A DNA stretch of 55,181 nucleotides from Acinetobacter phage Acba_3: sequence record OQ101248.1, one strand, 5' to 3'. Shown here piece by piece: positions 3,733-54,330 of this stretch (positions are counted from its first letter, which is position 1; the number at the start of each line of letters is the position of its first letter). The notes beneath the pieces were generated by a model. That model was not told the origin of the DNA. It worked only from the letters and a program-made list of their open reading frames with translations, and ran no database searches. A program made the translations under genes and the position numbers.

Positions 3733-3918
3733 GTTTATTACCGTATGGGTTCTCACTGTGACCCAACACCAGATGGTTGGTAGTGCCACCGAGTCAACAT
3801 ACCAGCTTCAATATGCAACTCAGTCAATTTGTGAAAAGCAAAAACTACGTCACGAAACAGATCGAACAAGTGTGCGGTGTGATTTTCAACAAGTGCCAGT
3901 TTATGTGAGGAGCCAGCC

Positions 3919-4260
3919 ATGAGTGAGTTTAAAGTCGGGGATTGGGTCAAGATGAAGGATGATTCTTCTGCATGGATGGGTAAGGTAGCAGCTATAGAGT
4001 ACAAGCCGTGTTTCGATTCAAAGTGGAACAGATATGAGATTGAGATTCTTGTTTTTGAAGATGGCACGAAATTGGGTTCTGGATGGGCAATTCATGTTGT
4101 TAAAGCAGCAGGCCACCGCATTGATAAAACAATAGGAACTTTGGAGGAATTGCATCCCGAGTTTTCAAAAGTTTTGCACGAGAACTTTTTAGAGTTGCTC
4201 GGAGATGATGCCCACATAGAAAACCACATCAGCCCACATTGCCAATCGAAGGATGTTTGA
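3919..4260 (+). CDS. Hypothetical protein
   Basis: ORF with GAGG RBS upstream. Confidence 0.4.
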   Translation: MSEFKVGDWVKMKDDSSAWMGKVAAIEYKPCFDSKWNRYEIEILVFEDGTKLGSGWAIHVVKAAGHRIDKTIGTLEELHPEFSKVLHENFLELLGDDAHIENHISPHCQSKDV

Positions 4261-4798
4261 GATGGATAAACCAATAACATTTAACGAATGGTTAGGCACA
4301 CAAGGCAATATGGTTCTCCTTCATGCCAATTGTTGCCGTATTGCCTTTGAAGGTGGTCAGCAGTCACAGCAAGCGAAAGTGGAGGGGCTGCAAAAGCAAT
4401 TAAGTGAATACATATTTGTGGCTGAAACTATTGATGAAATGTATGTGAAAGAAGTCCAGAAAAGTGACGAGCTGCAAAAGCGGGTGGATGAGCTTGAGCG
4501 TAAATTACAGATCAAAACTAGACATTGTGAGTTCTATGAGCAAAGCCGCAATGGGCATAGAAGTCTGGCAATTCATCGCAAAAAGCAAATTAACAGTGCC
4601 TTAGAACAAATTGAAAAGCTCTATTCAAAAGCAGAAAACGATTATGAGAAAGATCGTAACCCTTACTACGACGGAATGTTGTCAGCTCTAGATTTGGCTG
4701 AGCAGGCAATTAGAGGTGAGTTGGAAGAGCAAGCGCTCAAGGGGGATCAATACGATGAACATCGCAAGAAAGCAGAAGAGGCCATCTCAGAGAAATGA
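4253..4798 (+). CDS. Hypothetical coiled-coil protein
   Basis: Glu/Lys/Gln-rich helical sequence. Confidence 0.4.
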   Translation: MFEMDKPITFNEWLGTQGNMVLLHANCCRIAFEGGQQSQQAKVEGLQKQLSEYIFVAETIDEMYVKEVQKSDELQKRVDELERKLQIKTRHCEFYEQSRNGHRSLAIHRKKQINSALEQIEKLYSKAENDYEKDRNPYYDGMLSALDLAEQAIRGELEEQALKGDQYDEHRKKAEEAISEK

Positions 4799-20299: not shown

Positions 20300-20323
20300 T
20301 GCCTAACGTCGGAGTATATAGAT

Positions 20324-21253
20324 ATGTCGAGTGGTGCACGTCAGATAACACAAATCGCGAAGGAAACCACTGTTGGTACCACACCTTCACCCTTCGCACG
20401 TACGACCTTTGAATTTACTGAAAATGGCCTTGATGCGACAGTAACAAAGGAAGACTCTAACTCAATCACAAGTGGCCGTATTGCACGTTCATCAATGATT
20501 ACCGGTGCAGAGTATGCCGGTGAATTAAAATGTGAAGCGAAGTACAGTTCATTAGTTCAAGACTTAATGGCTGCAGCTGCTTTTAATAACTGGTCGTCAA
20601 ATGTATTAACTTTTGGTGGCACACTTCGTCAAACATTTTCTGTTTTACGTGGCTTTGAAGATGTTAATGACTACCATGTTTTCCGTGGATGTCATGTAAA
20701 CACTTTTGGAATTGATATTCCTGAAGCTGGCTTAATTACAATGACTTTCGGCCTTATGGCTCTTGGTCGTACAAACTTTTCTTCAGCACCGGCTGGAACA
20801 ATTACAGCGGCAGATAACAATCCTAAAATGTCGAATGTCTCTGTAGGTGACATTTTAATTGACGGCGTTTCTCAAGCTGGGATTTCATGCTTGACCGCTT
20901 TTACATTTAATTGGGATAACACTATGCAGCTACAACGCTGTTTAGGTGGTGGTATTGATGCACGTGCAATCCTAGAAATGCTTGCAACAGGTACAGGTTC
21001 ATTTACCGCAGCTTGGTCACGCAATACATCCGATATGTATGAAAAGCAATTCACTAACAAAACGATTTCATTAAAAGTTCCAATCACTGATACAGATGGG
21101 AATAAATATGAAATTTTTATTCCTAAAGCTGAAATTACTGCCCCATGGCCTAGTGGTGGTAATTCAGATCTTTTAAATGCTTCATTCGAATATAAAGTCG
21201 TAGAAGTAGCCCCAACCATCACTCGTACACCAGCAGCAGTTCCTGCGTCTTAA
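20324..21253 (+). CDS. Major tail protein
   Basis: 309 aa, GGAG RBS, flanked by terminators, located before chaperone/tape-measure genes. Confidence 0.65.
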   Translation: MSSGARQITQIAKETTVGTTPSPFARTTFEFTENGLDATVTKEDSNSITSGRIARSSMITGAEYAGELKCEAKYSSLVQDLMAAAAFNNWSSNVLTFGGTLRQTFSVLRGFEDVNDYHVFRGCHVNTFGIDIPEAGLITMTFGLMALGRTNFSSAPAGTITAADNNPKMSNVSVGDILIDGVSQAGISCLTAFTFNWDNTMQLQRCLGGGIDARAILEMLATGTGSFTAAWSRNTSDMYEKQFTNKTISLKVPITDTDGNKYEIFIPKAEITAPWPSGGNSDLLNASFEYKVVEVAPTITRTPAAVPAS

Positions 21254-21263
21254 TCAATCTGAT

Positions 21264-21287
21264 AGCAGCCTTAGGGCTGCTTTTTTT
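21264..21287 (+). terminator. Rho-independent terminator
   Basis: agcagcc-ttag-ggctgct then T7. Confidence 0.6.
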
Positions 21288-21297
21288 GGAGTTTAAA

Positions 21298-21831
21298 ATG
21301 GCTTTAAAAGTAAGCATTCAGACTAGTAAAACAGTTAGTAAATGGCGTAAGTATATTGATGGTGAAGGGAATGTATTAGCTGAATTTAAAGTACGTGGTA
21401 TCTCATATAAACCATATCAAGTGGCCCTTGAGCGTGCAAATAATCAGATTGCATCAAAAGGTTATGATGTAACTAAAGCTAGTAAAGACGACAAGCTATA
21501 TCATGAATTGCTTCTTGAAGCTGCGGCCTGCCATTTAATTGAGGACTGGAAAGGCGTAGTTTTTGAAGAAGTAACCGAAAATCAAGAACTGATTGTGTCT
21601 GAACCAGAATATTCGCAGGAAAATGCAATTAAGTTGTTGAATCTAGGCGATCTTGGTGTGGCAATTTGGTTGTTTGTGAGACAAGAGGCGGAAAATATCC
21701 AAAAAGAAGCTGATGCATATAAGGATGAAGTAGTGGGAAAGTCATTAACCTCTACAACTGGACCAAGTTCAACTCAGAAGAAGAAGCGAGCGACTACAAC
21801 AAGAAACAAACAGCAATTGCAAAAGCCTTAA
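21298..21831 (+). CDS. Tail assembly chaperone (lambda gpG-like)
   Basis: GGAG RBS; contains GGGAAAG slippery heptamer at 21735-21741 in X_XXY_YYZ phase; paralog of 25041-25388. Confidence 0.55.
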   Translation: MALKVSIQTSKTVSKWRKYIDGEGNVLAEFKVRGISYKPYQVALERANNQIASKGYDVTKASKDDKLYHELLLEAAACHLIEDWKGVVFEEVTENQELIVSEPEYSQENAIKLLNLGDLGVAIWLFVRQEAENIQKEADAYKDEVVGKSLTSTTGPSSTQKKKRATTTRNKQQLQKP

Positions 21832-22085
21832 ATTTAAAAATAGCTGAAACCATCCAAAAGCCTGAATACTCATTTACAGCCAATGCCATTCTTTCAGCAT
21901 ATAACGTAATTTCCCGTTCAAGGCGTTATGAGCAAGGCATTCCCTTGGCTTTGGATATTGCAGCTATATCTGCCTATTGTGATCATTATGAGATCCCAGT
22001 CGAAAGAGATATTTTTAACGACTGTATTTTTGCATTGGATAATTTGTTTTTGGATGAGGTGCATAAGAAAGCGAGTAAAAAATAG
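21735..22085 (+). CDS. Predicted -1 frameshift extension (lambda gpT-like) producing a G-T-like fusion
   Basis: 117 stop-free codons in the -1 frame from heptamer G_GGA_AAG (identical to the lambda G/T site) to TAG 22083-22085; frame contains no ATG, so accessible only by frameshifting. Confidence 0.55.
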   Translation, partial: GKVINLYNWTKFNSEEEASDYNKKQTAIAKALNLKIAETIQKPEYSFTANAILSAYNVISRSRRYEQGIPLALDIAAISAYCDHYEIPVERDIFNDCIFALDNLFLDEVHKKASKK

Positions 22086-22273
22086 AAATCTATATTGCAT
22101 TTGGCAAAAATCAAAGATAAATTGATGTCTCATACTTCTCACTCTTGACTGTATTTTTGCATTGGATAATTTGTTTTTGGATGAGGTGCATAAGAAAGCG
22201 AGTAAAAAATAGAAATCTATATTGCATTTGGCAAAAATCAAAGATAAATTGATGTCTCATACTTCTCACTCTT
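22020..22273. repeat. Perfect 127-bp tandem duplication (22020-22146 and 22147-22273)
   Basis: Identical copies; each carries the 3' end of the -1 frame T-like ORF plus a TTGCAT-N17-TAAATT promoter. Confidence 0.9.
22095..22123 (+). promoter_or_regulatory. Sigma70-like promoter TTGCAT-N17-TAAATT (second identical copy at 22222-22250)
   Basis: -35 22095-22100, 17-nt spacer, -10 22118-22123. Confidence 0.45.
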
Positions 22274-22278
22274 TGAGT

Positions 22279-22311
22279 AAGGGCCGCCGGTCGAATGTCG
22301 GGCTTTTTTTG
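22279..22311 (+). terminator. Probable rho-independent terminator
   Basis: GC-rich imperfect hairpin gggccgcc...gtcgggc followed by T7 run. Confidence 0.45.
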
Positions 22312-22342
22312 TTAAGTGGTAATTCACCTACAAAGGAAAGCA

Positions 22343-22485
22343 TGATGAAGAACCTTACTCATGCAGAACCCTATTTCATCATGCGTGAAAAAAAGGAACT
22401 GCAAAAGAGACTTTTAGATAAGAACAATGAACTATTGGAATTGATGCAAAGAGTTGAAAAATACTTGATGAGGATAGAAAAATAG
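22343..22485 (+). CDS. Hypothetical small protein (47 aa)
   Basis: AAGGAAAG RBS then ATG 22343; coiled-coil-like. Confidence 0.3.
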
Positions 22486-22501
22486 AGAGTTGTCTTTCTA
22501 C

Positions 22502-22535
22502 AAAAAAGCCCGCCTAATCAGCGGGTTTATTTGTT
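22502..22535. terminator. Bidirectional terminator
   Basis: A6-gcccgc-ctaatca-gcgggt-TTTATTTGTTT; serves convergent genes. Confidence 0.5.
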
Positions 22536-22780
22536 TCTAGCTCTTCAATTCGTGCCATTAGTTTTTCAATTAAAACAGTTGCGCGATCTAAATTCTTATT
22601 GCTCATATCTATAAGCTTCATAACTTCAGTTGGGATTTTCTCATTTATATCAAGGCTTTCTTCAAGTCTTGCAACTATTTCAGCAGTTAAAGATCTTTCA
22701 TTGTCTTTAGCCTTCTCTTCTAATAATTCTTTGAGCTTGCTAGGCATTCTAAAATTCACTTGAGAATAATCTTTAGCCAT
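22514..22780 (-). CDS. Arc/Mnt-like ribbon-helix-helix repressor (divergent partner)
   Basis: YSQVNFRMPSKLKELLEEKAKDNERSLTAEIVARLEESL is a classic Arc-type RHH N-terminus; ATG at 22780 preferred over TTG 22804. Confidence 0.6.
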   Translation of the reverse strand: MAKDYSQVNFRMPSKLKELLEEKAKDNERSLTAEIVARLEESLDINEKIPTEVMKLIDMSNKNLDRATVLIEKLMARIEELETNKPAD

Positions 22781-22902
22781 GGACCATATACCGCAAATTG
22801 ACAATTAACTAATCATATATAGCAAAAGTGCTTTACACAATGAAGCAAGAGTGCTATAAAGTAAAAATGCTATATAGCAAAGGTGCTTTATTGGAGGTAA
22901 AA
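22781..22902. promoter_or_regulatory. Divergent promoter/operator region of the immI-like module
   Basis: + strand TTTACA(22832-37)-N17-TATAAA(22855-60); perfect 12-bp palindrome TGCTATATAGCA at 22868-22879 over the predicted start site; direct repeats TATAGCAAA(A/G)GTGCTTTA at 22817-22835 and 22873-22890; - strand TTGTGT-N17-TATGAT. Confidence 0.5.
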
Positions 22903-23064
22903 ATGACAAGGCATGATAAGCAAATGAACGTTCGTATGGCACATGAAACAGTAAGTGAATTAAAGGAGGTAGCAAAGAAAAATCGTCGATCGGTAACGGC
23001 TCAGTTAAATCAAATCATAGAAGACTGGCTAAAAGAACAGAAACAACAGGATGCGAAAGCATGA
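22903..23064 (+). CDS. Arc-like ribbon-helix-helix repressor
   Basis: MNVRMAHETVSELKEVAKKNRRSVTAQLNQIIEDWL = Arc-type RHH; GGAGGT RBS. Confidence 0.6.
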   Translation: MTRHDKQMNVRMAHETVSELKEVAKKNRRSVTAQLNQIIEDWLKEQKQQDAKA

Positions 23065-23143
23065 AATTAACAGACAACAAAAAAGCCCCTGAATCTTGGC
23101 GGATGCGGAGCTTGATTGAAGTCATAACAGTGAGATATGAACT

Positions 23144-23530
23144 ATGTTAAATATACCATTCGAATTTGATAAAGACAAGGTTCTAGATATTACCGATCTA
23201 CTGCCAACCATTCCTATTGAGATTCTTGAGAAAGTAACAGATCAAAACGGTTCTGTTTCGGCAGATGAAGAAAATTTTCTAAAATCTGTAGGCCGTGCTG
23301 CGGAAAATGCAAACCTTCCAGTTTTAAAGGGATTAAGTGCTATTGGTGTGTTGCTTGCCAACGCAAATGAAGAAATACCGTTAGGAACATTTAATGATGT
23401 TGGCTGGTTAATACAATCGCTTAGCGAACAAGTTTTAGCTATAAGCCATATGCAAGGGTTCGCTGACTTACTTCTTGATGCAAGTAATAAGAACAAAATC
23501 TCTAAGGGCAATGGAGGGCTAATGTCATGA
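23144..23530 (+). CDS. Hypothetical protein
   Basis: ORF between arc-like and antirepressor genes. Confidence 0.4.
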   Translation: MLNIPFEFDKDKVLDITDLLPTIPIEILEKVTDQNGSVSADEENFLKSVGRAAENANLPVLKGLSAIGVLLANANEEIPLGTFNDVGWLIQSLSEQVLAISHMQGFADLLLDASNKNKISKGNGGLMS

Positions 23531-24066
23531 ATATGCTTATTAACCAAGAAACTTTAATTCCAGTTGTTGATAGAGATATTGGCGGAGAGGTTCAGCCTTC
23601 TGTTGATTCACGTGAATTGCATAAGTGGCTTAAATCTGGGGAAATGTTTGCCACATGGATAAAAAAACGGATTAAGACCTATAAATTTATTGAAAATGAA
23701 GACTATATTAGTTTTTTGGTAAACCCCAAAAAACCTAATGGTGGGCGTTCTTCAAGAGAATACATATTAACTATTGATATGGCTAAAGAGCTGTCAATGG
23801 TTGAAAACAATGAACAAGGTCGGGTTGCAAGACGTTATTTTATTAACTGTGAAAAAGCATTGCGACAAACAGCATTTGGATTAATGAACCAATTCAACAG
23901 AGCTGTATTAGAGTTTGAGAAGTTTACTGAAATTGCTTCAAATGCTGGAAGAACATTATGTTTGGTTGGTAAGCAGTACAAACCTCAAGCATTAAGTAAG
24001 GTTGAGGAGCTGAAGCAAAAGATTACGCCTTTGCTCCCATTCGAAGAAGACGAGATGCAAGCTTAA
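23527..24066 (+). CDS. Phage antirepressor (AntA/KilAC-like)
   Basis: SRELHKWLKSGEMFATWIKKRIKTYKFIENEDY...GGRSSREYILTIDMAKELSMVE matches antirepressor family pattern. Confidence 0.6.
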   Translation: MNMLINQETLIPVVDRDIGGEVQPSVDSRELHKWLKSGEMFATWIKKRIKTYKFIENEDYISFLVNPKKPNGGRSSREYILTIDMAKELSMVENNEQGRVARRYFINCEKALRQTAFGLMNQFNRAVLEFEKFTEIASNAGRTLCLVGKQYKPQALSKVEELKQKITPLLPFEEDEMQA

Positions 24067-24162
24067 AAGAATTAAGAACCCGCCAAGTGCGGGTTTTCTT
24101 CATGTGACATTTAGTAACCAGTTTGTTAAAGTTAGTACACTTTATAACAAACGGTGAAATTC

Positions 24163-24669
24163 ATGAAAAAGATTATTTTTATTCTAGCTGCACTAGGAAT
24201 TATTACAAGTCATGGGTGTATTACTATTCCTTCTCCAGAAGAAGTCCAAAGAAATGCTTATAAAGGATATTCTGAAGTGGTAGAACTGAATAGTATTCCT
24301 AAAGATCAAATATTTGAACTTTCAAAAATCTGGATTGCTAAATCTTTTAATTCTGCAAACAATGTCATTCAGTATGCGGATAAAAATACTGGAATAATCA
24401 TAGGGAAAGGTAACTTTTCTCTTAAATGCCCTGACAATGTAAAAGGTATGAATTGCTTAGCTTATACATCAACTAAAGCAGAATTTACTTTGAAAATAGA
24501 GATAAAAGATGGCAAATCCAGATTGACCTTTAGTGATGTACACCAAGCTGTAAATAACTACCCATTTTATGACAATATTTCTAAACCTATTATTGATTCC
24601 CAGATTAAAGGGATAGTTAAGAACTATGGTCTTGATATCATAAATCAAAAGAATGATTCAAATTGGTAG
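24163..24669 (+). CDS. Secreted/membrane-anchored protein with signal peptide (moron)
   Basis: N-terminal MKKIIFILAALGIITSHGC signal sequence; Lys-rich beta-type sequence. Confidence 0.45.
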   Translation: MKKIIFILAALGIITSHGCITIPSPEEVQRNAYKGYSEVVELNSIPKDQIFELSKIWIAKSFNSANNVIQYADKNTGIIIGKGNFSLKCPDNVKGMNCLAYTSTKAEFTLKIEIKDGKSRLTFSDVHQAVNNYPFYDNISKPIIDSQIKGIVKNYGLDIINQKNDSNW

Positions 24670-24729
24670 TAATTTGCTAATAAATAAAAGGTTAAATACT
24701 CATACTTAATAGTTTTTAAATACCAAATA

Positions 24730-24754
24730 GCCCACTCATCGAGTGGGTTTTTTA
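24730..24754 (+). terminator. Rho-independent terminator
   Basis: cccactc-atc-gagtggg then T6. Confidence 0.65.
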
Positions 24755-24769
24755 ATACCCAAAACAAAA

Positions 24770-24798
24770 CCCCAGTAGCGCTAACTACTGGGGTTTTT
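24770..24798 (+). terminator. Rho-independent terminator
   Basis: ccccagtag...ctactgggg then T5. Confidence 0.6.
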
Positions 24799-24840
24799 CA
24801 TTCCACCCACCGACGAAAGTAAGAGGAAAGTAAATCTATA

Positions 24841-24990
24841 TGGAGCATTTTAAACCAATAGTGGAGCTTATGAAAGTGTCTATTGAAAAGTATGGCTTAT
24901 GGCAGACAATTATTGCCTTTTTAATTTTGTTTTCCATACCAATTCTAATCTGGAAATTACCTGAAATCATTGCAGCGATTAAAGCCTAAA
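24841..24990 (+). CDS. Small hydrophobic peptide (49 aa, one predicted TM helix)
   Basis: MEHFKPIVELMKVSIEKYGLWQTIIAFLILFSIPILIWKLPEIIAAIKA; own terminator downstream. Confidence 0.3.
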
Positions 24991-25017
24991 ACCGACCTAT
25001 CAATGGTCGGTTTTTTA
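24990..25017 (+). terminator. Rho-independent terminator
   Basis: accgacc-tatcaat-ggtcggt then T6. Confidence 0.65.
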
Positions 25018-25040
25018 TTACCGAAATTTTGGAAGCAAAT

Positions 25041-25388
25041 ATGACGGATAAATCCAAATGGTTTGTTTTTAAGAAAAATGATCAAGTTTTTGGATGTTTC
25101 AGGATTAAGCCTTTTTCCGATCCTGAATTTGGTAAAGCCTATAAAATGCTTTGTACCAAAAAAAGTATTTTTAGAATGAGTGCCATGCGATCTGCCCAAG
25201 AGTTTGCAAAAATTATCGCAACTCATCTTATACAGGATTGGGAAAATATTGAACTTTCAAAAACAGGAATAGCTGGAGAAAAGGAAACACGGTATTCGCC
25301 TCAATCGGCCTATCAGCTATTGATGTATGGAGATCTAGGGGCTGAGATAACTTCATGGATCTTGGAAAAGTCCAAAAGTATTGCCTAG
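25041..25388 (+). CDS. Tail assembly chaperone paralog (gpG-like) adjacent to the tape measure gene
   Basis: Shares LI(Q/E)DW...LL..GDLG...W blocks with 21298-21831; GGAAG RBS. Confidence 0.5.
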   Translation: MTDKSKWFVFKKNDQVFGCFRIKPFSDPEFGKAYKMLCTKKSIFRMSAMRSAQEFAKIIATHLIQDWENIELSKTGIAGEKETRYSPQSAYQLLMYGDLGAEITSWILEKSKSIA

Positions 25389-25448
25389 TTAAGACTCGAT
25401 TTATTGCCGCCGCTTAAGGTGGTTTTTTATTGCCTGAAGGAAAGTCAA

Positions 25449-28400
25449 ATGGCTCAAGAAGCTCGCTTAGTAATTGTTATTGATTCGGAACGTGCGAAAC
25501 GCACTGCACAAGACTTATCAGTTGAATTGGATAGCATCACCAAAAAAGGGGATTTCGCCTCGAAATCTATGGACCGGATGTCTGTAGCAACTCGTGCACT
25601 AGCAGGGTATATGGCTGGTTTATTAACAGTAGGTTCAGCCATTTCAAAGATGGATACATATACTGGACTACAAAACCGCCTTAAGTTGGTCACTAATAAT
25701 CAAGTTGAACTAAATAAAGCTACGGAAGACACTTTCCGAATTGCTCAAAAAACCTATTCAGCATGGGATTCTGTTCTACAGGTCTACCAGCGTTTTAGTG
25801 ATAATGCCAAAACTTTAAACCTCACAATGGATGACACAGCACGTTTAACTGAAACAGTTTCTAAAGCTGTAGCAATTAGTGGTGCAAGTGCAGAAGCTGC
25901 TGATGCAGCTTTAGTTCAGTTCGGGCAGGCCTTGGCTAGTGGAACGTTGCGTGGAGAAGAACTTAATTCTGTAATGGAGCAAACCCCAGCACTAGCAAAG
26001 GCTATTGCTAAAGGTATGGGTATTACTGTAGGTGAATTACGTTCAGTAGCAGCTGAAGGAAAAATTACTTCACAAGAAATTGTAAAAGCGCTTAGAAATG
26101 TAGAATCTGATGTTGATGCTCTTTTTGCTAAAACAGATATCACAATCGAGCAGTCTCTCACACTCCTAAACAACGAGATCACAAAATTTGTTGGCGAAGC
26201 AGGTAAGGGAAGTGGTGCGGCACAGGTATTAGCTGGATCAGTTCAAACTCTTGCAAGTAATTTAGATTTAATTGCTGATGGGGCTTTAGTAGTTGGTATT
26301 GGATATATCACTCGTGCAATTTTGATGAAGAGCGCTGCTATTAAAGAGGGAATGGCTTCAACTTTAGCGAGCCGCCAAGCATCTGTATTAAATGCTCAAG
26401 CAGAATATGCAGAAGCTACCGCTGCTTTGAATGCAGCAAAAGCTCATCTCGCGAATGTGCGAGCAACAAATGCAGAAACCCAAGCTAAATTTGGCGCAAC
26501 AGCGGCAGCAACTCGATACGCACAAGCACAGGCAGCAGTAACTGCTGCTACAAATGCACAAACAGCAGCTCAAATTAAGCTAAATACTGCAACTTCAATT
26601 GCAGGGAGACTAGCTAAAGGGGCGTTTGGATTAATTGGTGGGTGGGCTGGAGTTGCAACATTAGGAGTAATGGGATTAGCGGCAGCCTATTCTTATTTTA
26701 ATAATAAGGCAGAGGGGGCAAAGCAAAAGCTTGCTGAACAAGCTAAAGTTGCTGAGAAAGCTGATGAGGAGTTAAAAAAATTAACTGGCAATGATAAGGC
26801 TAAAGCAGTTAATGATTTAACTACTGCTTTTAATGCACAAAATAAAGCATTAGAGAAATCATCGCGTGCTGTAGGGTCTGCATTAATTGATATCGAGAAC
26901 TATGCACGAGGAAATAGGGAGGTTGAAAAAATTTCCCAAGAAGCGAGAACTGGAACTATCAGCTATACAGAAGCCATTGAACGTCTAAATAAAATTAAGT
27001 TGCCTACAGATCTATATGAAAATCTGAAAAAACAGGCTGCGCAGTATGATGACAATGCATCTAAAGCAAGTTTATCAGCTGAGAAACTTAAATTATTAAG
27101 AGTTGAAGTGAAACTTGGAGGTAATGAAGCACAAAATGCGGCAATTCAGCATCAAAAACAAGCGGATGCTTTAGGAAATACTGCTACTGAAGCAGAAAAG
27201 GCAACTAAGGCTTTGCAAGATTATCAAGCCAAGCAAAAAGATAGCGTTATTGATTCAATCTATAAATCAGGTTGGCTTGATAAAGGTTACACTGTTGCTC
27301 AAGCTAATGCCATTTTAGAACTGCAAAAAGCTAAAGGAATGAGTGCAATTTTGTCTAAAGATGAAATTGATAGCGCACTTAGAAATCTCAAGATCATCGA
27401 AGAACAACAGGAGCGAGAAGATAAATTAACTGAAGCTAAAAGAAAGCAGACGCAGGAAATTGAAAAACAAGCAAAACTTACTAAACGCTTGGTCGGTATT
27501 TCCGGTCAATCCGGTATTGGTACTGGTCCACATCTTGACGTCCGATATGGTGGCTCATTGTCAGGTCAGAAAGTTTCTAATGAACATCTGGCTCGATTAC
27601 AGGCGGGAGGAAAACCTTTAACTTCCTACAAGATCAGTTCTAATTATGGTCCACGAAAAGCCCCAACTAAAGGGGCTTCTTCATTTCATAAAGGTATTGA
27701 TTTTTCAATGCCTGAAGGAACACCAATCACGACCAATGTTGCTGTGAAAGATATCAAGACATGGTATGACAGCAAGGGAGGTGGTTATGTCAGTGAAGTG
27801 ATCTTTGAGGATGGAGTGTCTCTTAAGCTTCTACATCAATCTCCCAAGATGCAGAGCAAGGTGAAAGGTGGTGCAAGTAAAGGAAGTGATAAAGCAGCTG
27901 GTGATATTCAATCTCAACTTGAACGTCAACAGGATTTGCAACGGTCACTTGAAAATGAGGTGGCTAGTGAAGTCGGACGGATTAACAATAATAGAAAGGC
28001 AAGACTGGAGGATGTTGATAAAGCAAACTTTAGCCCGGAACGTACTGCAGAAATAAAGGCGGAAATAAATCGTCGTGCAGATAATGATATTGCTATAGCC
28101 AAACAAGCCCTTAGAACGAAATTGGAAGACTATAAGGAGTTCCAGAAAACCGAGGAACAGTTACTAGAAGAGTCCTTTAACCGTAAAAAGTTCAATGCAG
28201 CTCATGACCTTGAATTAAGTAAGTTTGAGCAGAAGCAAGCTGTTGAATTGCTGGAACAGCAAAAACAGCAAGAGTTAGGGTTATTAAAACTAGCTCAGGA
28301 ACAGCGGTTGTTTCAAGCCCGTTTATCTCTGCTTTCTGAAACGCAAGCCATGCAGGAACGTTACAGACTCGAACGGGAGGAAATTCTTAAGAATACCAAG

Positions 28401-29423
28401 CTTTCTATAGAAGAGCGGCAAAAGCTAATCGCATTATCTAAAGCCAATCAGGATAAAGAGACACGCGATAAAGTGAATAATGCTGTTCAAAACTGGGGTG
28501 GTATTCAGGCGAGTATCACTGGTAATAGTGGTCAATTCGCTTTAGAACAGGAGCGCTTTCGCCGTTATGATGCTTCTCAAAAAGTATTTGATAGCCAGCT
28601 TGCTGATATTGAAACTCAGGAACAAGATCCAAATGCAAATATGGTAGCTCTAAATGCACAACGTGAACAAATCATGAAGGAGCACTTTGAGCGTTTGAAA
28701 TTGATTGAATCTACTTATCAAAATGATTCAATGAATCTCCAGTTGGGTTATGGAGCTAGTGTCACAGGGGCATTGGCTGGCATGTTTAAAAATATGCTTG
28801 GTGAGTCATCAAGTGCTTATCACGTTCTTTATGAAAGTCAACGTGCATTCGCATTGGCGCAGGCTGGAATGAACATGTGGAAAGCTGCTTCAGATGCTTA
28901 CGCAAATGAGCCAGGTACTTGGTACCAAAAAGCGGCAGCAGCAGCGATCGCGACAATTAAATCAGGTACATTTGTATCTCTCATCCAAGCTGCAACCCCG
29001 CAAGGATTTGCGGATGGTGGTTATACAGGTAACGGCCTAAAACACACTCCAGCAGGGATTGTGCATAAAGGCGAAGTCGTATGGTCGCAAGAAGATATCA
29101 AACGCTGGGGTGGTGTTAGCGTTGTTGAAAGTATGCGTCAAAGCAATCCAAGTGGTTATGCGAACGGAGGTTACGTTTCTAATAATCAGTCTGATGCTAT
29201 TGCAATACGTAGAGAGTCTAGACAGTTTGAGGCAATCAACTCTAATCAATCTCAATTGAATACGAACGAAAAGCCAATAAATGTGTATGTCACTGTTAAT
29301 GCCGATGGCACAAGTAAAACAGAGACAGAAAACGACTCAAAACAATTGGGCCAAATGATTGGTAATGCAGTAAGAACTATTATTCGCCAGGAACAAAGAC
29401 AAGGTGGTTTGTTATCTAAGTAA
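25449..29423 (+). CDS. Tail tape measure protein with embedded M23 (LytM-like) peptidase domain
   Basis: 1325 aa, Ala/Gln-rich helical repeats; M23 signature GPRKAPTKGASSFHKGIDFSMPEGTPI (aa ~740-770); ATG 25449 chosen because ATG 25404 overlaps an upstream terminator-like hairpin. Confidence 0.85.
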   Translation: MAQEARLVIVIDSERAKRTAQDLSVELDSITKKGDFASKSMDRMSVATRALAGYMAGLLTVGSAISKMDTYTGLQNRLKLVTNNQVELNKATEDTFRIAQKTYSAWDSVLQVYQRFSDNAKTLNLTMDDTARLTETVSKAVAISGASAEAADAALVQFGQALASGTLRGEELNSVMEQTPALAKAIAKGMGITVGELRSVAAEGKITSQEIVKALRNVESDVDALFAKTDITIEQSLTLLNNEITKFVGEAGKGSGAAQVLAGSVQTLASNLDLIADGALVVGIGYITRAILMKSAAIKEGMASTLASRQASVLNAQAEYAEATAALNAAKAHLANVRATNAETQAKFGATAAATRYAQAQAAVTAATNAQTAAQIKLNTATSIAGRLAKGAFGLIGGWAGVATLGVMGLAAAYSYFNNKAEGAKQKLAEQAKVAEKADEELKKLTGNDKAKAVNDLTTAFNAQNKALEKSSRAVGSALIDIENYARGNREVEKISQEARTGTISYTEAIERLNKIKLPTDLYENLKKQAAQYDDNASKASLSAEKLKLLRVEVKLGGNEAQNAAIQHQKQADALGNTATEAEKATKALQDYQAKQKDSVIDSIYKSGWLDKGYTVAQANAILELQKAKGMSAILSKDEIDSALRNLKIIEEQQEREDKLTEAKRKQTQEIEKQAKLTKRLVGISGQSGIGTGPHLDVRYGGSLSGQKVSNEHLARLQAGGKPLTSYKISSNYGPRKAPTKGASSFHKGIDFSMPEGTPITTNVAVKDIKTWYDSKGGGYVSEVIFEDGVSLKLLHQSPKMQSKVKGGASKGSDKAAGDIQSQLERQQDLQRSLENEVASEVGRINNNRKARLEDVDKANFSPERTAEIKAEINRRADNDIAIAKQALRTKLEDYKEFQKTEEQLLEESFNRKKFNAAHDLELSKFEQKQAVELLEQQKQQELGLLKLAQEQRLFQARLSLLSETQAMQERYRLEREEILKNTKLSIEERQKLIALSKANQDKETRDKVNNAVQNWGGIQASITGNSGQFALEQERFRRYDASQKVFDSQLADIETQEQDPNANMVALNAQREQIMKEHFERLKLIESTYQNDSMNLQLGYGASVTGALAGMFKNMLGESSSAYHVLYESQRAFALAQAGMNMWKAASDAYANEPGTWYQKAAAAAIATIKSGTFVSLIQAATPQGFADGGYTGNGLKHTPAGIVHKGEVVWSQEDIKRWGGVSVVESMRQSNPSGYANGGYVSNNQSDAIAIRRESRQFEAINSNQSQLNTNEKPINVYVTVNADGTSKTETENDSKQLGQMIGNAVRTIIRQEQRQGGLLSK

Positions 29424-50843: not shown

Positions 50844-51528
50844 TGCTAGTCTCCTCAACTGGATGAACGTAGCTATCACACATATTCAAAAGCATTGATT
50901 TATGCTGATTCCAGAATTCAAGTGCTTCGCTATCCATGCGTGTGATACGTGCATCGTCAAATGACTTCCAATCTGCAACCGCATGTTCTTGGCAGCCAAT
51001 ACGCATCTTGCCTAAGCCACTGATAATCACATCCCAGCGCAACCCGTAGACAATAAGTGGGGCAGCTTTAGCACAGCTAAGGTTGGCACCGCGAAGGTCG
51101 GCATCGCGAAGGTTGGCACCGCGAAGGTCGGCATCGCGAAGGTTGGCATAGCTAAGGTTGGCATAGCTAAGGTTGGCATCGCGAAGGTTGGCACAGCTAA
51201 GGTTGGCATAGCTAAGGTTGGCATAGCTAAGGTCGGCATCGCGAAGGTCGGCATCGCGAAGGTTGGCATAGCTAAGGTCGGCATCGCGAAGGTTGGCATA
51301 GCTAAGGTCGGCATAGCTAAGGTTGGCATAGCTAAGGTTGGCATAGCTAAGGTCGGCATAGCTAAGGTTGGCATAGCTAAGGTCGGCATCGGCAGCTATC
51401 GCAGCCTCAGCCGCATGACGAGCAATCATTCCTGATCCCATTCCTTCTGGAACATCACAGGTAAAAAGGACTTCTTCTGTCCAGCGATTTTTAATTTCGA
51501 ATTTCTGTGTCATAATCTTCTCACTCAT
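50830..51528 (-). CDS. Pentapeptide-repeat protein (about 22 consecutive A(D/N)L(S/R)(Y/D) pentapeptides)
   Basis: Classic pentapeptide repeat with central Leu, flanked by ~30-aa N-terminal and ~75-aa C-terminal non-repeat regions; start ATG 51528 preferred, 51618 possible. Confidence 0.75.
   Translation of the reverse strand: MSEKIMTQKFEIKNRWTEEVLFTCDVPEGMGSGMIARHAAEAAIAADADLSYANLSYADLSYANLSYANLSYADLSYANLRDADLSYANLRDADLRDADLSYANLSYANLSCANLRDANLSYANLSYANLRDADLRGANLRDADLRGANLSCAKAAPLIVYGLRWDVIISGLGKMRIGCQEHAVADWKSFDDARITRMDSEALEFWNQHKSMLLNMCDSYVHPVEETSNDSE
51063..51392. repeat. About 22 near-perfect tandem 15-bp repeats (ggcatagctaaggtt / ggcatcgcgaaggtc variants) encoding the pentapeptide array
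   Basis: Visible as ladder of gcatagctaaggttg / gcatcgcgaaggtcg units; alternate-frame ORF MPTLAMPTLA... is an artefact of the same repeat. Confidence 0.9.
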
Positions 51529-51536
51529 TGAGTAAA

Positions 51537-51569
51537 AGTCCCGTCGGTCAGATGTCTGGGACTTTTTTG
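51537..51569 (+). terminator. Plus-strand terminator-like hairpin antisense to the 5' end of the pentapeptide gene
   Basis: agtccc...gggact stem followed by T6 on the + strand; only TTTTAC follows on the - strand. Confidence 0.35.
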
Positions 51570-51664
51570 TTATCTGGTGAGATTTATTAAACCAAAGGTA
51601 TAAAATAAAAGCAAGCATAAATTAAACCATAGGTGAAAATAATTTATGATTAGGTTTAAATATG

Positions 51665-51692
51665 CTTTAATAGACAAAAGAAAACCCACCGT
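51665..51692 (-). terminator. Rho-independent terminator after the restriction-modification gene
   Basis: cccacc-gtggt-ggtggg preceded on + strand by aaaagaaaa (T-run on minus strand). Confidence 0.55.
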
Positions 51693-51714
51693 GGTGGTGG
51701 GTTCGAAGGGGGGA

Positions 51715-53982
51715 TTAGTTGTAATTTTGAGGAAGTTCCCATAATGCTTCTGTCTTTAGACGCAATTTTTTTTGATTTTCCTTGAGACTATTCTCAATTT
51801 CCTTTATTATTTTATGTTGTTTTACTATTTGATCTTTAACCTCTTCAGGAGGATTCGGGATCTCAATATTCAAAAACATTTCATCAGGAATACTGCGTCG
51901 TCTCTCTACACTGCCTTGCATTTTACTTTTGTATATTTTTCTTAGAGAATTAGATCTCAAAATCAAATCCAAATATTCTACATTAACTTCTCGTTTTAAT
52001 CTAAAGATTTTGTATGCTGGGCTTACGGCAGCAGCATCGTAATATTTTTGAAATCCTAGAACACCTTCATCTATAGGGAACCCCATTACAAGTTCATTTT
52101 TAAAAACCTTTTTATACCCAGAAATATCAGAACTTGCGACTCGTTTTTTAAATTTCTCATGCTGATCAATTAAGCCATGTTCCATAGTGATACTCATAAT
52201 AGGCATATTTGTATCCTCTCCCACTTTGACTTTGCCAGACAAGGATAGGAGTTCTTTTAGTTTTATAGTTGGGAATTTTGATTTTATATGTGAATTACTA
52301 TAGTGAGCATAATTATAAATATAATCATTGCTTCTGATTAATTCTGGATTAACTTTTAAGAAACCTAATTCATTATAATATTTATCAAAGTCGCTCTTAT
52401 TTAAATCAGCAAAATCTAAATTTTTTAAATCATTTTCGTCAATTTTTCTACGGAAAGAATCTAAACTTAGGCCATCATTTGTCACATTGTAGTAAAAAAC
52501 GTCAGAATTTGTTCTACCATTATGACAGTTGGTAAAGTAGAGTATATTGGTTTTAACTTTTGCATATGGCAGAAAAACTTCTTTTGGAAGTGAAACTACT
52601 GCTTTTAGTTGGGCGTTTTCAAATAAATACTTCCTTACTGGAGCTAAAGCGGCTTTAAAAAGAAAGCCTTCAGGTACTACTAATGCCATTCGCCCTCCTT
52701 TTTTTGTTGCTTTAAAGCAATGTAGAACACATACTCCATCACCATCGTTTTTAGCTAACTTATTCTCATATAAGTGAGAATAAGAAGTTTTTTGAGAAAA
52801 TGGCATGTTGGTTATAACCACATCATATTCAGATTCAATAGGGTTTTGAAGTGTGTCTATCTGGCAAATTCCACTATGCCCATCCCCATGCAGAATCATA
52901 TTCATTTTTGCGAGTTTTGCATTTGAGGTAATTTCTCTTCCAAAAATAGTATTATGTTTAAGCTTGATTTCTTCACTACTATTGTTTGCAATTAAAGTGT
53001 TATCTTTTATATGATCAAATGCCTCTGTTAAAAAACCACCTGTCCCACAAAAAGGGTCATAGATCTTTTCACCATATTTAGGGTTGACTAAGTTAACAAT
53101 GGTTTTAGTTATGTGACGTGGAGTAAAATATTCTCCTAAGTCATTATTAGTTGCTGTAGCTTGCTGTAAGAAATACTCAAAAGCATCTCCTTTAATATCG
53201 GTATCTATTGATGAGAGTTTTAACTTATCCAACTCTTTGATCATCTCTTTAACAGCAACAGGGTTGGTTAGCTGTAAATTTGTAAAAACAGAAGCACCAT
53301 ATTGTCTATCAATATCTTGTAGTATGTTATTAGTTGTATTAATTAGCAAATCATTATCGAGACTTTTGAGAGAATTCCAAATACCTGTATTAGCATTCTC
53401 TGTATACAATTTTAAAAAAAGAATGTTTGCAAATTCTGAAAGCCTTTCTATACCAGCTCTTAAACCTTCACCTCTTAGTGAGTTATTTAACTTCTTGAAA
53501 ACATTAATTAACTCTTTGCGAGAGACTAAAATTTCTTTAGGTGTAATATAAATACCATTTGTTTCCTGCAATATGAACTCTTTAGCTTCATTTACTCTTA
53601 TTAATTCATTAACCTCATTTTCATCAATAAATAATGGTTTTTGGGTATACAAATGCCGTGTTTCGCAGAAACCATTATTCATTGCAAATATCAAAGGTGC
53701 ATCAAGCATTTCAGCATATTCGGTTGCCTGATCCAGTGCTTTTGTTAAGCTTTTTCCACCTGATTTCGTTTCAATTACACCGATTGGCCGCTTATTTTGT
53801 GAATCGAAAAGAACATAATCGGGTCTTTTTTTACTTTTCTTGAGAAACTCATTATTAACAATTCTTAAGATATCTGATTCAAAAAAGACATTTTTGTTTG
53901 GATCTTGAATGTCCAAGATCCAGCCCTTGTTAATCAAATTATTGTTAACAATAAAACGTGTATCTTGCTCAATATTAGACAT
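51715..53982 (-). CDS. Single-polypeptide restriction-modification enzyme of Type IIG architecture: PD-ExK nuclease + gamma-class N6-adenine MTase + one HsdS-like TRD
   Basis: N-terminal PDYVLF...IGVIETK (PD...ExK, HsdR_N-like); HsdM_N-like LRGEGLRAGIERLSEFANILFLKLY; MTase motif X GEYFTPRHI, motif I YDPFCGTGGFL, motif IV TNMPF; C-terminal HsdS-type recognition domain ending IPNPPEEVKDQIVK; markedly lower GC than neighbours; ATG 53982 (TTG 53997 alternative). Confidence 0.7.
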   Translation of the reverse strand: MSNIEQDTRFIVNNNLINKGWILDIQDPNKNVFFESDILRIVNNEFLKKSKKRPDYVLFDSQNKRPIGVIETKSGGKSLTKALDQATEYAEMLDAPLIFAMNNGFCETRHLYTQKPLFIDENEVNELIRVNEAKEFILQETNGIYITPKEILVSRKELINVFKKLNNSLRGEGLRAGIERLSEFANILFLKLYTENANTGIWNSLKSLDNDLLINTTNNILQDIDRQYGASVFTNLQLTNPVAVKEMIKELDKLKLSSIDTDIKGDAFEYFLQQATATNNDLGEYFTPRHITKTIVNLVNPKYGEKIYDPFCGTGGFLTEAFDHIKDNTLIANNSSEEIKLKHNTIFGREITSNAKLAKMNMILHGDGHSGICQIDTLQNPIESEYDVVITNMPFSQKTSYSHLYENKLAKNDGDGVCVLHCFKATKKGGRMALVVPEGFLFKAALAPVRKYLFENAQLKAVVSLPKEVFLPYAKVKTNILYFTNCHNGRTNSDVFYYNVTNDGLSLDSFRRKIDENDLKNLDFADLNKSDFDKYYNELGFLKVNPELIRSNDYIYNYAHYSNSHIKSKFPTIKLKELLSLSGKVKVGEDTNMPIMSITMEHGLIDQHEKFKKRVASSDISGYKKVFKNELVMGFPIDEGVLGFQKYYDAAAVSPAYKIFRLKREVNVEYLDLILRSNSLRKIYKSKMQGSVERRRSIPDEMFLNIEIPNPPEEVKDQIVKQHKIIKEIENSLKENQKKLRLKTEALWELPQNYN

Positions 53983-54114
53983 ATTGCATAATCCCAATAT
54001 CTACTATAAAAACTATTGGCAATCTACACATTACACACTAAAACATCAATAAATATTACTATCTAATAAGTGATATACCCCACATTTAAAAGACTGTGTC
54101 GGGTTCACAGTTTA

Positions 54115-54330
54115 TTAATCTTTTGTGTTATTAATTTTCTGGCCTAGCTTTCCTTCTTTTACCAACTGCACGACCTGCTCATTAGTAAGCACAGGAATAA
54201 AGACTTTGTCGCCAATATCTTTAGAAAGAATCTTTACTTCTTCAGCGGTTAGCACCAAAGCTTCACCATGTTTCGCAGCATCATTGATGCGAGCAATAAT
54301 CTGGTTGATTGGTCGTTTTGAATTGTCCAT
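54115..54330 (-). CDS. Hypothetical protein downstream of cI
   Basis: 71-aa ORF between repressor and RM gene. Confidence 0.35.
   Translation of the reverse strand: MDNSKRPINQIIARINDAAKHGEALVLTAEEVKILSKDIGDKVFIPVLTNEQVVQLVKEGKLGQKINNTKD

Follow-up and report, generated by a model that had tools for sequence, protein, structure and literature searches.

A predicted P22 immI-like immunity cassette in the chaperone-tape measure moron site of a temperate Acinetobacter siphophage

The 55,181-nt DNA of Acinetobacter phage Acba_3 (OQ101248.1; this whole stretch is hereafter called the window) carries an island at 22086–25040, between the genes for tail assembly chaperone and tape measure, which is probably an 'ant moron': a self-contained secondary-immunity cassette accompanied by lysogenic-conversion genes in the chaperone-tape measure moron site, for which a mechanism is proposed below. 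The mnt-arc-ant logic of the P22 immI region, placed in the late region by the original prediction, was recovered in two Arc-family proteins, a Mnt-like layout, palindromes over a promoter, an AntA effector and a putative antisense unit. The comparison of sequences supports well a module of known kind in a new host and phage type, in which the immI logic appears rebuilt with a non-homologous effector, an added gene (orf128) and an apparently shared operator specificity. The core of the cassette consists of the following elements (window coordinates; the repressors are ribbon-helix-helix, RHH, proteins):

22514–22780, minus strand: Mnt-like repressor of 88 aa with an N-terminal RHH domain and a long C-terminal helix (Pfam Arc PF03869, E = 1e-10)
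22821–22887: predicted operator cluster of AGCAAAAGTGCT (22821–22832), AGCAAGAGTGCT (22844–22855), a degenerate AGTAAAAATGCT (22860–22871) and AGCAAAGGTGCT (22876–22887)
22832–22860, plus strand: predicted rightward (Pant-like) promoter TTTACA(22832)-17-TATAAA(22860), a 10/12 match
22903–23064, plus strand: Arc-like repressor of 53 aa (Pfam Arc PF03869, E = 2.3e-7)
23080–23178, minus strand: candidate sar-like antisense RNA unit with the promoter TTGTCT (23178–23173), a 17-nt spacer and TGgTATATT (-10 at 23155–23150)
23144–23530, plus strand: orf128, encoding a helical protein (phrog_14904, E = 2e-86)
23527–24066, plus strand: antirepressor-family protein Ant of 179 aa, with AntA (PF08346, E = 1e-26) and ORF11CD3 (PF10549, E = 1e-18) domains
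24075–24097, plus strand: intrinsic terminator after ant (-13.6 kcal/mol, z = -3.9)

The profile searches upheld the proposed divergent pair of Arc/Mnt-type repressors: both proteins exceeded the Pfam Arc cutoff of 20.4 bits, Arc being the best-scoring family next to weak matches to ParG, FitA-like and TraY, and both hit Mnt and Arc chains in the PDB (88-aa protein versus 1mnt, E = 0.004). The 88-aa protein is 37% identical to Mnt residues 1–43 over 43 residues, aligned from residue 1 (MAKDYSQVNFRMP versus MARDDPHFNFRMP); over residues 1–43 the Mnt sequence used matches that of the 1mnt alignment. Its AlphaFold2 model (predicted local distance difference test score, pLDDT, of 84) has helices at 14–26, 31–43 and 51–83, the last being 33 residues long, so that on the model the protein has Mnt architecture. 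A GGAGG Shine-Dalgarno sequence lies 5 nt before the gene of the 53-aa protein, whose sequence is 37% identical to that of the 88-aa protein; the strand pattern Q-x-N-x-R is common to both. The base-contacting residues of Arc itself are Gln9, Asn11 and Arg13. In PHROG the RHH proteins carry 'partition protein ATPase' labels, and in NCBIfam only the 88-aa protein gave matches, far below threshold (TprA 33 bits and DDP1 18 bits, with cut-offs of 150).

The palindrome AGCAARRGTGCT (AGCA-N4-TGCT) is present in three exact copies, at 22821, 22844 and 22876, which span 67 bp of the 122-bp divergent intergenic region (22781–22902) and are found nowhere else in the window. Together with the degenerate copy, they cover the -35 element, the spacer, the -10 element and the start region of the predicted rightward promoter, so the palindromic operators expected around the repressor pair are supported, as a prediction, by their number and placement. 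The arc-like gene, orf128 and ant follow each other in this order on one strand, with no plus-strand terminator before 24075–24097, and the arc-like gene is presumably co-transcribed with ant as the first gene of the operon. The orf128 stop overlaps the ant start (ATGA), which points to translational coupling of the two genes.

The best computational support for the operators came from the relatives, which were collected by tblastn of the window proteins against ~130 fetched loci (L numbers below). The order long RHH gene (minus strand), short RHH gene (plus strand), orf128 and effector is common to the relatives examined, and their replacement RHH pairs keep the same architecture, with a long protein of 87–136 aa and a short one of 51–59 aa. 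At least six RHH/operator types exist at the chaperone-tape measure site, each with its own repeated palindromes at the same place in the control region, and the layout of -35, operator in the spacer and -10 recurs in L008, L018, L026, L028 and L032. The types, with their sites and strand residues, are:

Window type: AGCA-N4-TGCT; Q-N-R in both RHH proteins
L018 type: TAGAGTGCTA, AAGCACTTGCTT; Q-N-R in both RHH proteins
L011 type: GTTAGCA/TGCTAAC; Q-N-R in both RHH proteins
L028 type: AGCAAAACGCT; Q-N-R in both RHH proteins
L008 type: TAGAGTACCTCTA, GAGGTAC, GTACCT; Q-K-R in both RHH proteins
L032: L008-type sites; Q-K-R in the short RHH protein (the one examined in this locus)
L026 type: CCACAAAKTGTGG, three times; a different strand in the short RHH protein

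All four Q-x-N-x-R types (window, L018, L011 and L028) have sites containing AGCA/TGCT, and L032 independently repeats the L008 pairing of Q-x-K-x-R with GAGGTAC/GTACCT sites. Such a joint change of proteins and sites is the signature expected of repressor/operator specificity modules. As a separate observation, the Q-x-K-x-R-type operator ATAGAGTACCTCTAT at L008 5297–5311 (IMGVR_UViG_3300014091_000002) contains TAGA-N5-TCTA, with the half-sites and spacing of the P22 arc operator (TAGAAGCACTCTA).

The orf128-ant pair is 98–100% conserved in dozens of Acinetobacter prophages, almost always between the G/GT chaperone and the tape-measure gene, and orf128 homologs (62, all from Acinetobacter, none with a Pfam domain) occur on hundreds of Acinetobacter contigs (~300, 310 and 190 for the three commonest variants). 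The AlphaFold2 model of orf128 is a helical hairpin (pLDDT 74). Ant matches phrog_5817 'anti-repressor Ant' (E = 1e-63); of the AntA/KilAC-like antirepressor initially proposed, the AntA part stood, but in place of KilAC the protein has ORF11CD3. The gene after orf128 encodes AntA in the window, pRha in L129, L131 and L133, and Bro-N in L136, while in L135 a KilA-N + ANT gene precedes orf128 (P22_AR_N is also reported at L135). This variety of families beside orf128 makes the effector slot interchangeable and leaves orf128, the RHH architecture and the antisense unit as the constant parts. The GenBank labels of the island genes are limited to 'regulatory protein', 'DNA-binding protein', 'antirepressor' and 'hypothetical', and in the Acba_1 record the 'antirepressor' label stands on orf128, not on the AntA gene.

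A small antisense RNA is predicted over the orf128 ribosome-binding site. Its promoter, found in the promoter scan, sits in orf128 codons 3–12 and is followed by a minus-strand terminator hairpin at 23113–23083 with a U6 run (-17.9 kcal/mol, z = -2.0), which gives a predicted transcript of ~64 nt, from ~23143 to ~23080, complementary to the orf128 leader and ribosome-binding site. On the plus strand the same hairpin has A6 before it and no T-run after it and is therefore a terminator for leftward transcription alone; to its right there is no leftward gene. Both promoter hexamers, the TGG and the 17-nt spacing are kept in 12 of the 13 diverged loci with a varying spacer sequence, and a single copy of the motif TTGTCW-N14-TGGTATATT was present per locus in 33 fetched loci, invariably where orf128 starts. 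Loci with another gene replacing orf128 retain the terminator and the TATATT -10 element. Two unrelated hairpin sequences exist, each followed by T6–7 on the minus strand only; these two types were too different for RNAalifold, which returned a weak consensus energy and covariation counts that are not meaningful, and the hairpins were judged per sequence together with their T-runs. Within orf128, 54 invariant residues have degenerate codons, with the third base invariant in only 10 of them, and four of these frozen codons (N3, I4, P5 and K12) spell the promoter hexamers (hypergeometric ~7e-4, calculated post hoc).

Two further observations concern the same stretch. A 29-aa open reading frame (ORF; MKLTDNKKAPESWRMRSLIEVITVRYELC) at 23062–23151 on the plus strand overlaps the stop of the 53-aa RHH gene (ATGA) and the orf128 start (ATGTTAA) and crosses the antisense-terminator hairpin; gene callers placed genes of 32–34 aa at its position in L129, L133 and L135, and it may be a translational-coupling bridge or a leader peptide. 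The hairpin loop motif ATCTTGGCGGAT (23091–23102) is replaced by its reverse complement, ATCCGCCAAGAT, in the hairpins of the L020/L025 type, with the T-run on the minus strand in both types; the loop seems inverted, perhaps by recombination between the stem arms.

The mechanism that we propose from these elements is as follows. In the lysogen, a Mnt-like tetramer on the palindromes would keep the rightward promoter off and orf128-ant silent, because the palindromes overlap its -35, spacer, -10 and start region. Upon infection or repressor titration the rightward promoter would fire, and the Arc-like protein, first in the operon, would shut it again, producing a pulse by negative feedback. The ~64-nt antisense RNA would pair with the orf128 ribosome-binding site and, via translational coupling, limit Ant. 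Ant and/or orf128 would then bind and inactivate a CI-type repressor, belonging either to the phage itself or to a co-resident prophage, opening a RecA-independent route of derepression, and the RHH/operator type would decide which phages silence each other's ant. As a tentative extension, most temperate Acinetobacter siphophages might carry a portable four-part cassette (Mnt-like protein, Arc-like protein, sar-like RNA, and orf128 with a swappable effector) of at least six types, with orf128 as the conserved antirepressor or an obligatory co-factor, which would form a second 'immunity type' system. If so, in the polylysogenic, LexA-less A. baumannii this second system would determine which prophages, co-resident or incoming, are induced or silenced by one another.

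Several results weigh against this interpretation. In the promoter scan the best leftward (mnt-like) promoter reached only 8/12, and the 88-aa RHH gene, which may have a leaderless start, is without a Shine-Dalgarno sequence. Separate operators of the Omnt and Oarc type were not seen in the control region, where one motif family only is visible; with Q-x-N-x-R, the predicted base-contacting residues, in both RHH proteins, a P22-like division of labour is not evident. The orf128 fold matched only generic helical hairpins (CorA etc.) in a Foldseek search of the PDB, none at E ≤ 0.001. Ant has neither the P22_AR_N nor the ANT/KilAC domain in Pfam and is not homologous to P22 Ant, and the label 'antirepressor' is loose for AntA, Rha, Bro-N and KilA-N proteins, few of which have a proven target. 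The antisense RNA is a prediction with a modest hairpin z-score, the codon conservation of NIPF and DK may partly reflect recent shared ancestry, and the Rfam scan of 21800–25500 returned sub-threshold, terminator-like noise without sar or any other family, so that its relation to P22 sar is one of analogy, not homology.

The nearest known system is the P22 'ant moron', which comprises mnt, arc, sar, ant, sieA and genes of unknown function in the late operon, shows high genetic flux and was described as having 'ten types in sixteen genomes' (PMC2629481). The island resembles it in its divergent Mnt-like/Arc-like RHH pair (88 + 53 aa here, 83 + 53 aa in P22), in the long C-terminal helix of the Mnt-like protein, in the clustered palindromes over the rightward promoter, in the position of arc as the first gene of the ant operon and in an antisense RNA predicted to cover the ribosome-binding site of the gene that follows arc; it likewise lies inside a late (virion) operon beside likely exclusion or conversion genes and has a high flux of content. 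The differences are the phage type and site (an Acinetobacter siphovirus with the island between the tail assembly chaperone and tape-measure genes, against a site before the tailspike gene in P22), the effector (AntA + ORF11CD3 against P22_AR_N + ANT) and the extra conserved orf128 between arc and ant, a constant partner of swappable effectors. Moreover, neither sequence nor Rfam relates the predicted antisense RNA to P22 sar, and one operator motif family goes with Q-x-N-x-R in both RHH proteins, whereas P22 has distinct Omnt and Oarc.

Among other systems, the P1/P7 immI region (c4, icd, ant) and further AntA/AntB modules have in common with the island the AntA domain, an antisense control (predicted here) and an upstream ORF coupled to ant, as in the icd-ant translational coupling of P1; P1 differs in that its antisense RNA is processed and acts in trans and in that RHH repressors are not used. 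The antirepressors of Gifsy, N15 and 186 (Tum) are small modules through which induction can proceed separately from the direct cleavage of CI by RecA, and they are controlled by LexA or helix-turn-helix repressors, in contrast to the phage-encoded RHH pair here. The chaperone-tape measure interval of HK97 contains gene 15, which is equipped with terminators of its own and codes for a small protein of the inner membrane (PMC3594210). A 49-aa membrane peptide of the island (24840–24989) is its positional and physical analogue, with a possible exclusion function; HK97 has one gene at the site, against a multi-gene island of 3 kb here. In the literature on Acinetobacter combined with antirepressor, Arc, Vieuvirus or tape measure, no description of the module was found.

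Acinetobacter lacks LexA (PMC3978071); A. baumannii strains are usually polylysogenic, and their temperate phages are being engineered for therapy, e.g. by CI deletion. If the cassette works as predicted, it would represent a RecA-independent switch for prophage induction and cross-induction, a natural set of orthogonal RHH repressor/operator pairs, and a test of an immI-type circuit with antisense control rebuilt from non-homologous parts in another morphotype.

The source phage is a temperate siphophage of Acinetobacter, with an integrase and a CI of the HTH_3 + Peptidase_S24 type at the far end of the record. The matching record of Acba_13 (OQ101255.1) is 99.9% identical to the window over the 6.2-kb query in one aligned piece, and its coordinates minus 85 give window coordinates. 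The gene order is tail tube, chaperone G, island, G-like paralog and tape-measure gene, and the structures surrounding the island are:

20324–21253: tail tube protein (PF18906)
21298–21831, plus strand: tail assembly chaperone G of 177 aa (phrog_313, E = 1e-51), 100% identical to the AM106 chaperone
21735–22085, plus strand: slippery heptamer GGGAAAG (21735–21741) and the -1 frame T extension of the predicted gpGT, with its stop at 22083–22085
22020–22273: tandem duplication of 127 bp in two perfect copies, very likely introduced by the assembly (Tandem Repeats Finder, 100% identity)
25041–25388, plus strand: G-like chaperone paralog of 115 aa (phrog_313, E = 8e-20)
25449–29423, plus strand: mosaic tape-measure protein, of Vieuvirus type to ~28524 and of AM106 type from ~29013 (blastn)

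Judged by its sequence, the upstream chaperone is a lambda-type G/GT pair with a predicted frameshift: GGGAAAG, the heptamer that lambda uses, occurs at 21735 in frame with G, and no stop interrupts the -1 frame for 116 codons. The T part matched Phage_TAC_18 below threshold (E = 2e-4), and its C-terminal motif DIFNDCIFALDNLFLDE is kept in three lineages. Since the -1 frame is open to 22085, the segment 21832–22085 is T coding; a 3.2-kb insert after the chaperone had been proposed for 21832–25040, and it is present but has to be trimmed to 22086–25040.

Of the explanations that compete with a secondary-immunity cassette, the least improbable, which we nevertheless regard as unlikely, is a regulated moron with an effector other than a CI antirepressor, acting instead on host or heterologous-phage transcription, in anti-defence, in abortive infection or in the gating of late read-through. 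It would fit an effector slot filled by the non-homologous AntA, pRha, Bro-N and KilA-N/ANT families next to orf128 as the constant partner, an Ant for which no solved homolog was found and none is characterised, and the many terminators in the path of late transcription; for P22 the ant moron has been proposed to modulate read-through into the tailspike gene (PMC2629481). On the other hand, antirepression is what all four effector families have historically been associated with, the architecture of regulation, with its predicted antisense RNA, corresponds to that of immI, and no PADLOC defence model matches any island protein. A toxin-antitoxin or plasmid-partition-type module (ParG/CopG/antitoxin-like) in place of an immunity circuit is the least probable of all. 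The ParG, FitA-like and TraY matches and the PHROG partition labels noted above would suit it, and toxin-antitoxin pairs do use the same hot-spot (HicAB in AM106 and, by sequence only, a possible pair in L008); yet no toxin or ParA-like gene adjoins the RHH genes, which are divergent and not toxin-paired, Arc is the sole family well above threshold for both proteins, and in relatives it is orf128 and ant that lie downstream of them.

A recent entry of the island by recombination between two G genes, with the chaperone paralogs at both ends as its traces and the 127-bp duplication as a real, promoter-bearing scar, is highly improbable and already largely refuted. In its favour are the two phrog_313 proteins on either side of the island, the mosaic nature of the window, made up of two lineages, and the start of the duplication at the left crossover. 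But the window is 99.6% AM106-like up to 22057, 99.8% Acba_1-like (Vieuvirus) at 22020–28524 and 99.3% AM106-like from 29013, which places the left crossover at 22019–22028, in a ~40-bp conserved stretch encoding the T C-terminus, and the right one inside the tape-measure gene (~28524), both outside G; therefore a block of 6.5 kb was exchanged in one piece, comprising the island, the paralog and three quarters of the tape-measure gene. In the donor lineage (Acba_1 and IMG/VR L007), its own G/GT is already followed by an identical island, then the paralog and finally the tape-measure gene. Identity between G and the paralog is only 33% over 58 residues (BLASTP E = 1e-7), and the paralog is absent from many cassette-bearing relatives, including L009 with a 96% identical tape-measure N-terminus, and is not beside the tape-measure gene in L029. 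The paralogs thus do not appear to bound the island as had been suggested. On the sequence evidence, the block passed between lineages each already using the chaperone-tape measure hot-spot.

Dozens of Acinetobacter prophages have the chaperone-tape measure gap in common as a hot-spot for cargo, and the island is not special to this phage. Upstream cargo in relatives includes the HicA/HicB pair of AM106 (L002 8887–9514, record annotation) and other small genes. In L023 and L134 (IMG/VR, JGI 3300031087) the cassette, with the Arc gene on the minus strand, the short RHH gene, orf128 and AntA, stands immediately downstream of the tape-measure gene, from which it follows that the cassette moves as a unit between neighbouring tail-operon slots. 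L008 has at 3904–4772 two adjacent same-strand genes of 149 and 134 aa, which might be toxin-antitoxin-like.

The 127-bp tandem duplication is present in the sequence as had been noted, but it is very likely a joining artefact of SPAdes at k = 127. This part of the window has no other long exact repeat (all further ones of ≥40 bp are located in the pentapeptide-repeat gene near 51100–51400, with internal repeats at 51079–51383), and at the joint of the duplication …CTCACTCTT ends copy 1 and GACTGTAT… opens copy 2. Assembly of the genomes was done with SPAdes 3.12 on Illumina reads of 2x250 bp; the default largest k of SPAdes for 250-bp reads is 127, and adjacent edges of a de Bruijn graph overlap by k. 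Four siblings (Acba_11, Acba_14, Acba_18 and Aclw_9) are 100% identical to the window over 20300–26500 minus exactly 127 bp (6,074 aligned bases in two pieces versus 6,201). Copy 1 is exactly the first 127-mer common to the window and the co-isolated Vieuvirus-type (Acba_1-type) phages, the last difference from which is at 22019; Acba_1 and IMG/VR L007 have this 127-mer once, after …TTTAAT, where the window has …TTTAAC. Copy 1 is therefore a branch vertex in the de Bruijn graph of a mixed sample, and two contigs joined end to end at such a vertex would produce exactly this duplicate. The call rests on the length being the SPAdes maximum k, on the four identical siblings without the duplicate and on the start at the first shared base. 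In practical terms, the Acba_13 record very likely holds a k-mer joining artefact at the mosaic junction. The left junction coincides with the artefact site, so its physical reality rests on the four sibling assemblies, which come from the same laboratory. The claim that the duplication carries a promoter failed: the promoter scan found none convincing in the repeat, the best match being 9/12, and the plus-strand one crosses the left boundary and is thus present once only.

The remaining cargo of the island and its terminators are:

22342–22485, plus strand: orf47, a small protein (phrog_34228, E = 6e-35), convergent with the long RHH gene
22506–22528, both strands: bidirectional intrinsic terminator common to orf47 and the long RHH gene (terminator scan)
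24163–24669, plus strand: DUF4468 secreted or lipoprotein-like moron protein (PF14730, E = 1e-18)
24729–24749 and 24766–24797: two hairpin terminators (terminator scan)
24840–24989, plus strand: 49-aa single-pass membrane peptide (phrog_35629 'membrane protein', E = 9e-30)
24988–25014: terminator after the 49-aa peptide (-14.6 kcal/mol, z = -5.3)

No Pfam, PADLOC or NCBIfam match was obtained for orf47; the OQ101255 record starts this gene at an upstream ATG, so as to span a hairpin. The signal-peptide protein foreseen at 24163–24669 was recognized by its DUF4468 match, and its slot after ant holds other secreted proteins or lipoproteins in relatives. The membrane peptide is flanked by strong hairpin terminators on both sides, as proposed, with coordinates shifted by one base from the earlier 24841–24990; it is unannotated in the OQ101255 record. 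In total, 11 terminator-like sites were found against 2.4 ± 1.6 expected, and late transcription must pass at least six terminators to reach the tape-measure gene. The GC content of the island is 0.30–0.39, compared to 0.41 in the flanking tail genes. The site thus has the variable cargo, terminators and deviating GC of a moron in the Hendrix/Juhala definition, and the promoters are predicted. Both the DUF4468 protein and the 49-aa peptide are independent morons, each served by its own terminators, and a role in surface modification or superinfection exclusion is probable for them.

The second gpG-like protein before the tape-measure gene was confirmed to be without a frameshift site: the paralog at 25041–25388 contains no slippery heptamer and no overlapping alternative-frame ORF. 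It is present in Vieuvirus-type phages, with a 52%-identical intact ortholog in A. lwoffii-type prophages (L026, L029 and L030), and given its absence or displacement in other relatives it appears to be maintained but dispensable cargo rather than a scar bounding the island. In the OQ101255 record only its last 70 codons are annotated (record 25261–25473). The paralog TAG and the tape-measure ATG (25386–25451) are in one frame, with 20 intervening codons without a stop; a read-through fusion of the two proteins was considered and rejected as probably a coincidence, given the L029 ortholog that is not adjacent to the tape-measure gene.

Outside the island, an 88-aa early-operon protein at 196–462 (record 281–547), next to the Cro-like gene, is labelled 'regulatory protein ARC' in the record, a label left unsupported by the absence of any Pfam match at E ≤ 0.01. 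At the other end, beside CI, the minus-strand region ~50878–54105 (record 50963–54190) encodes a 287-aa pentapeptide-repeat protein (PF00805, E = 2e-44) and the product of a 755-aa gene annotated as 'type I restriction enzyme M protein', which are likely defence or anti-defence morons of the early-left region.

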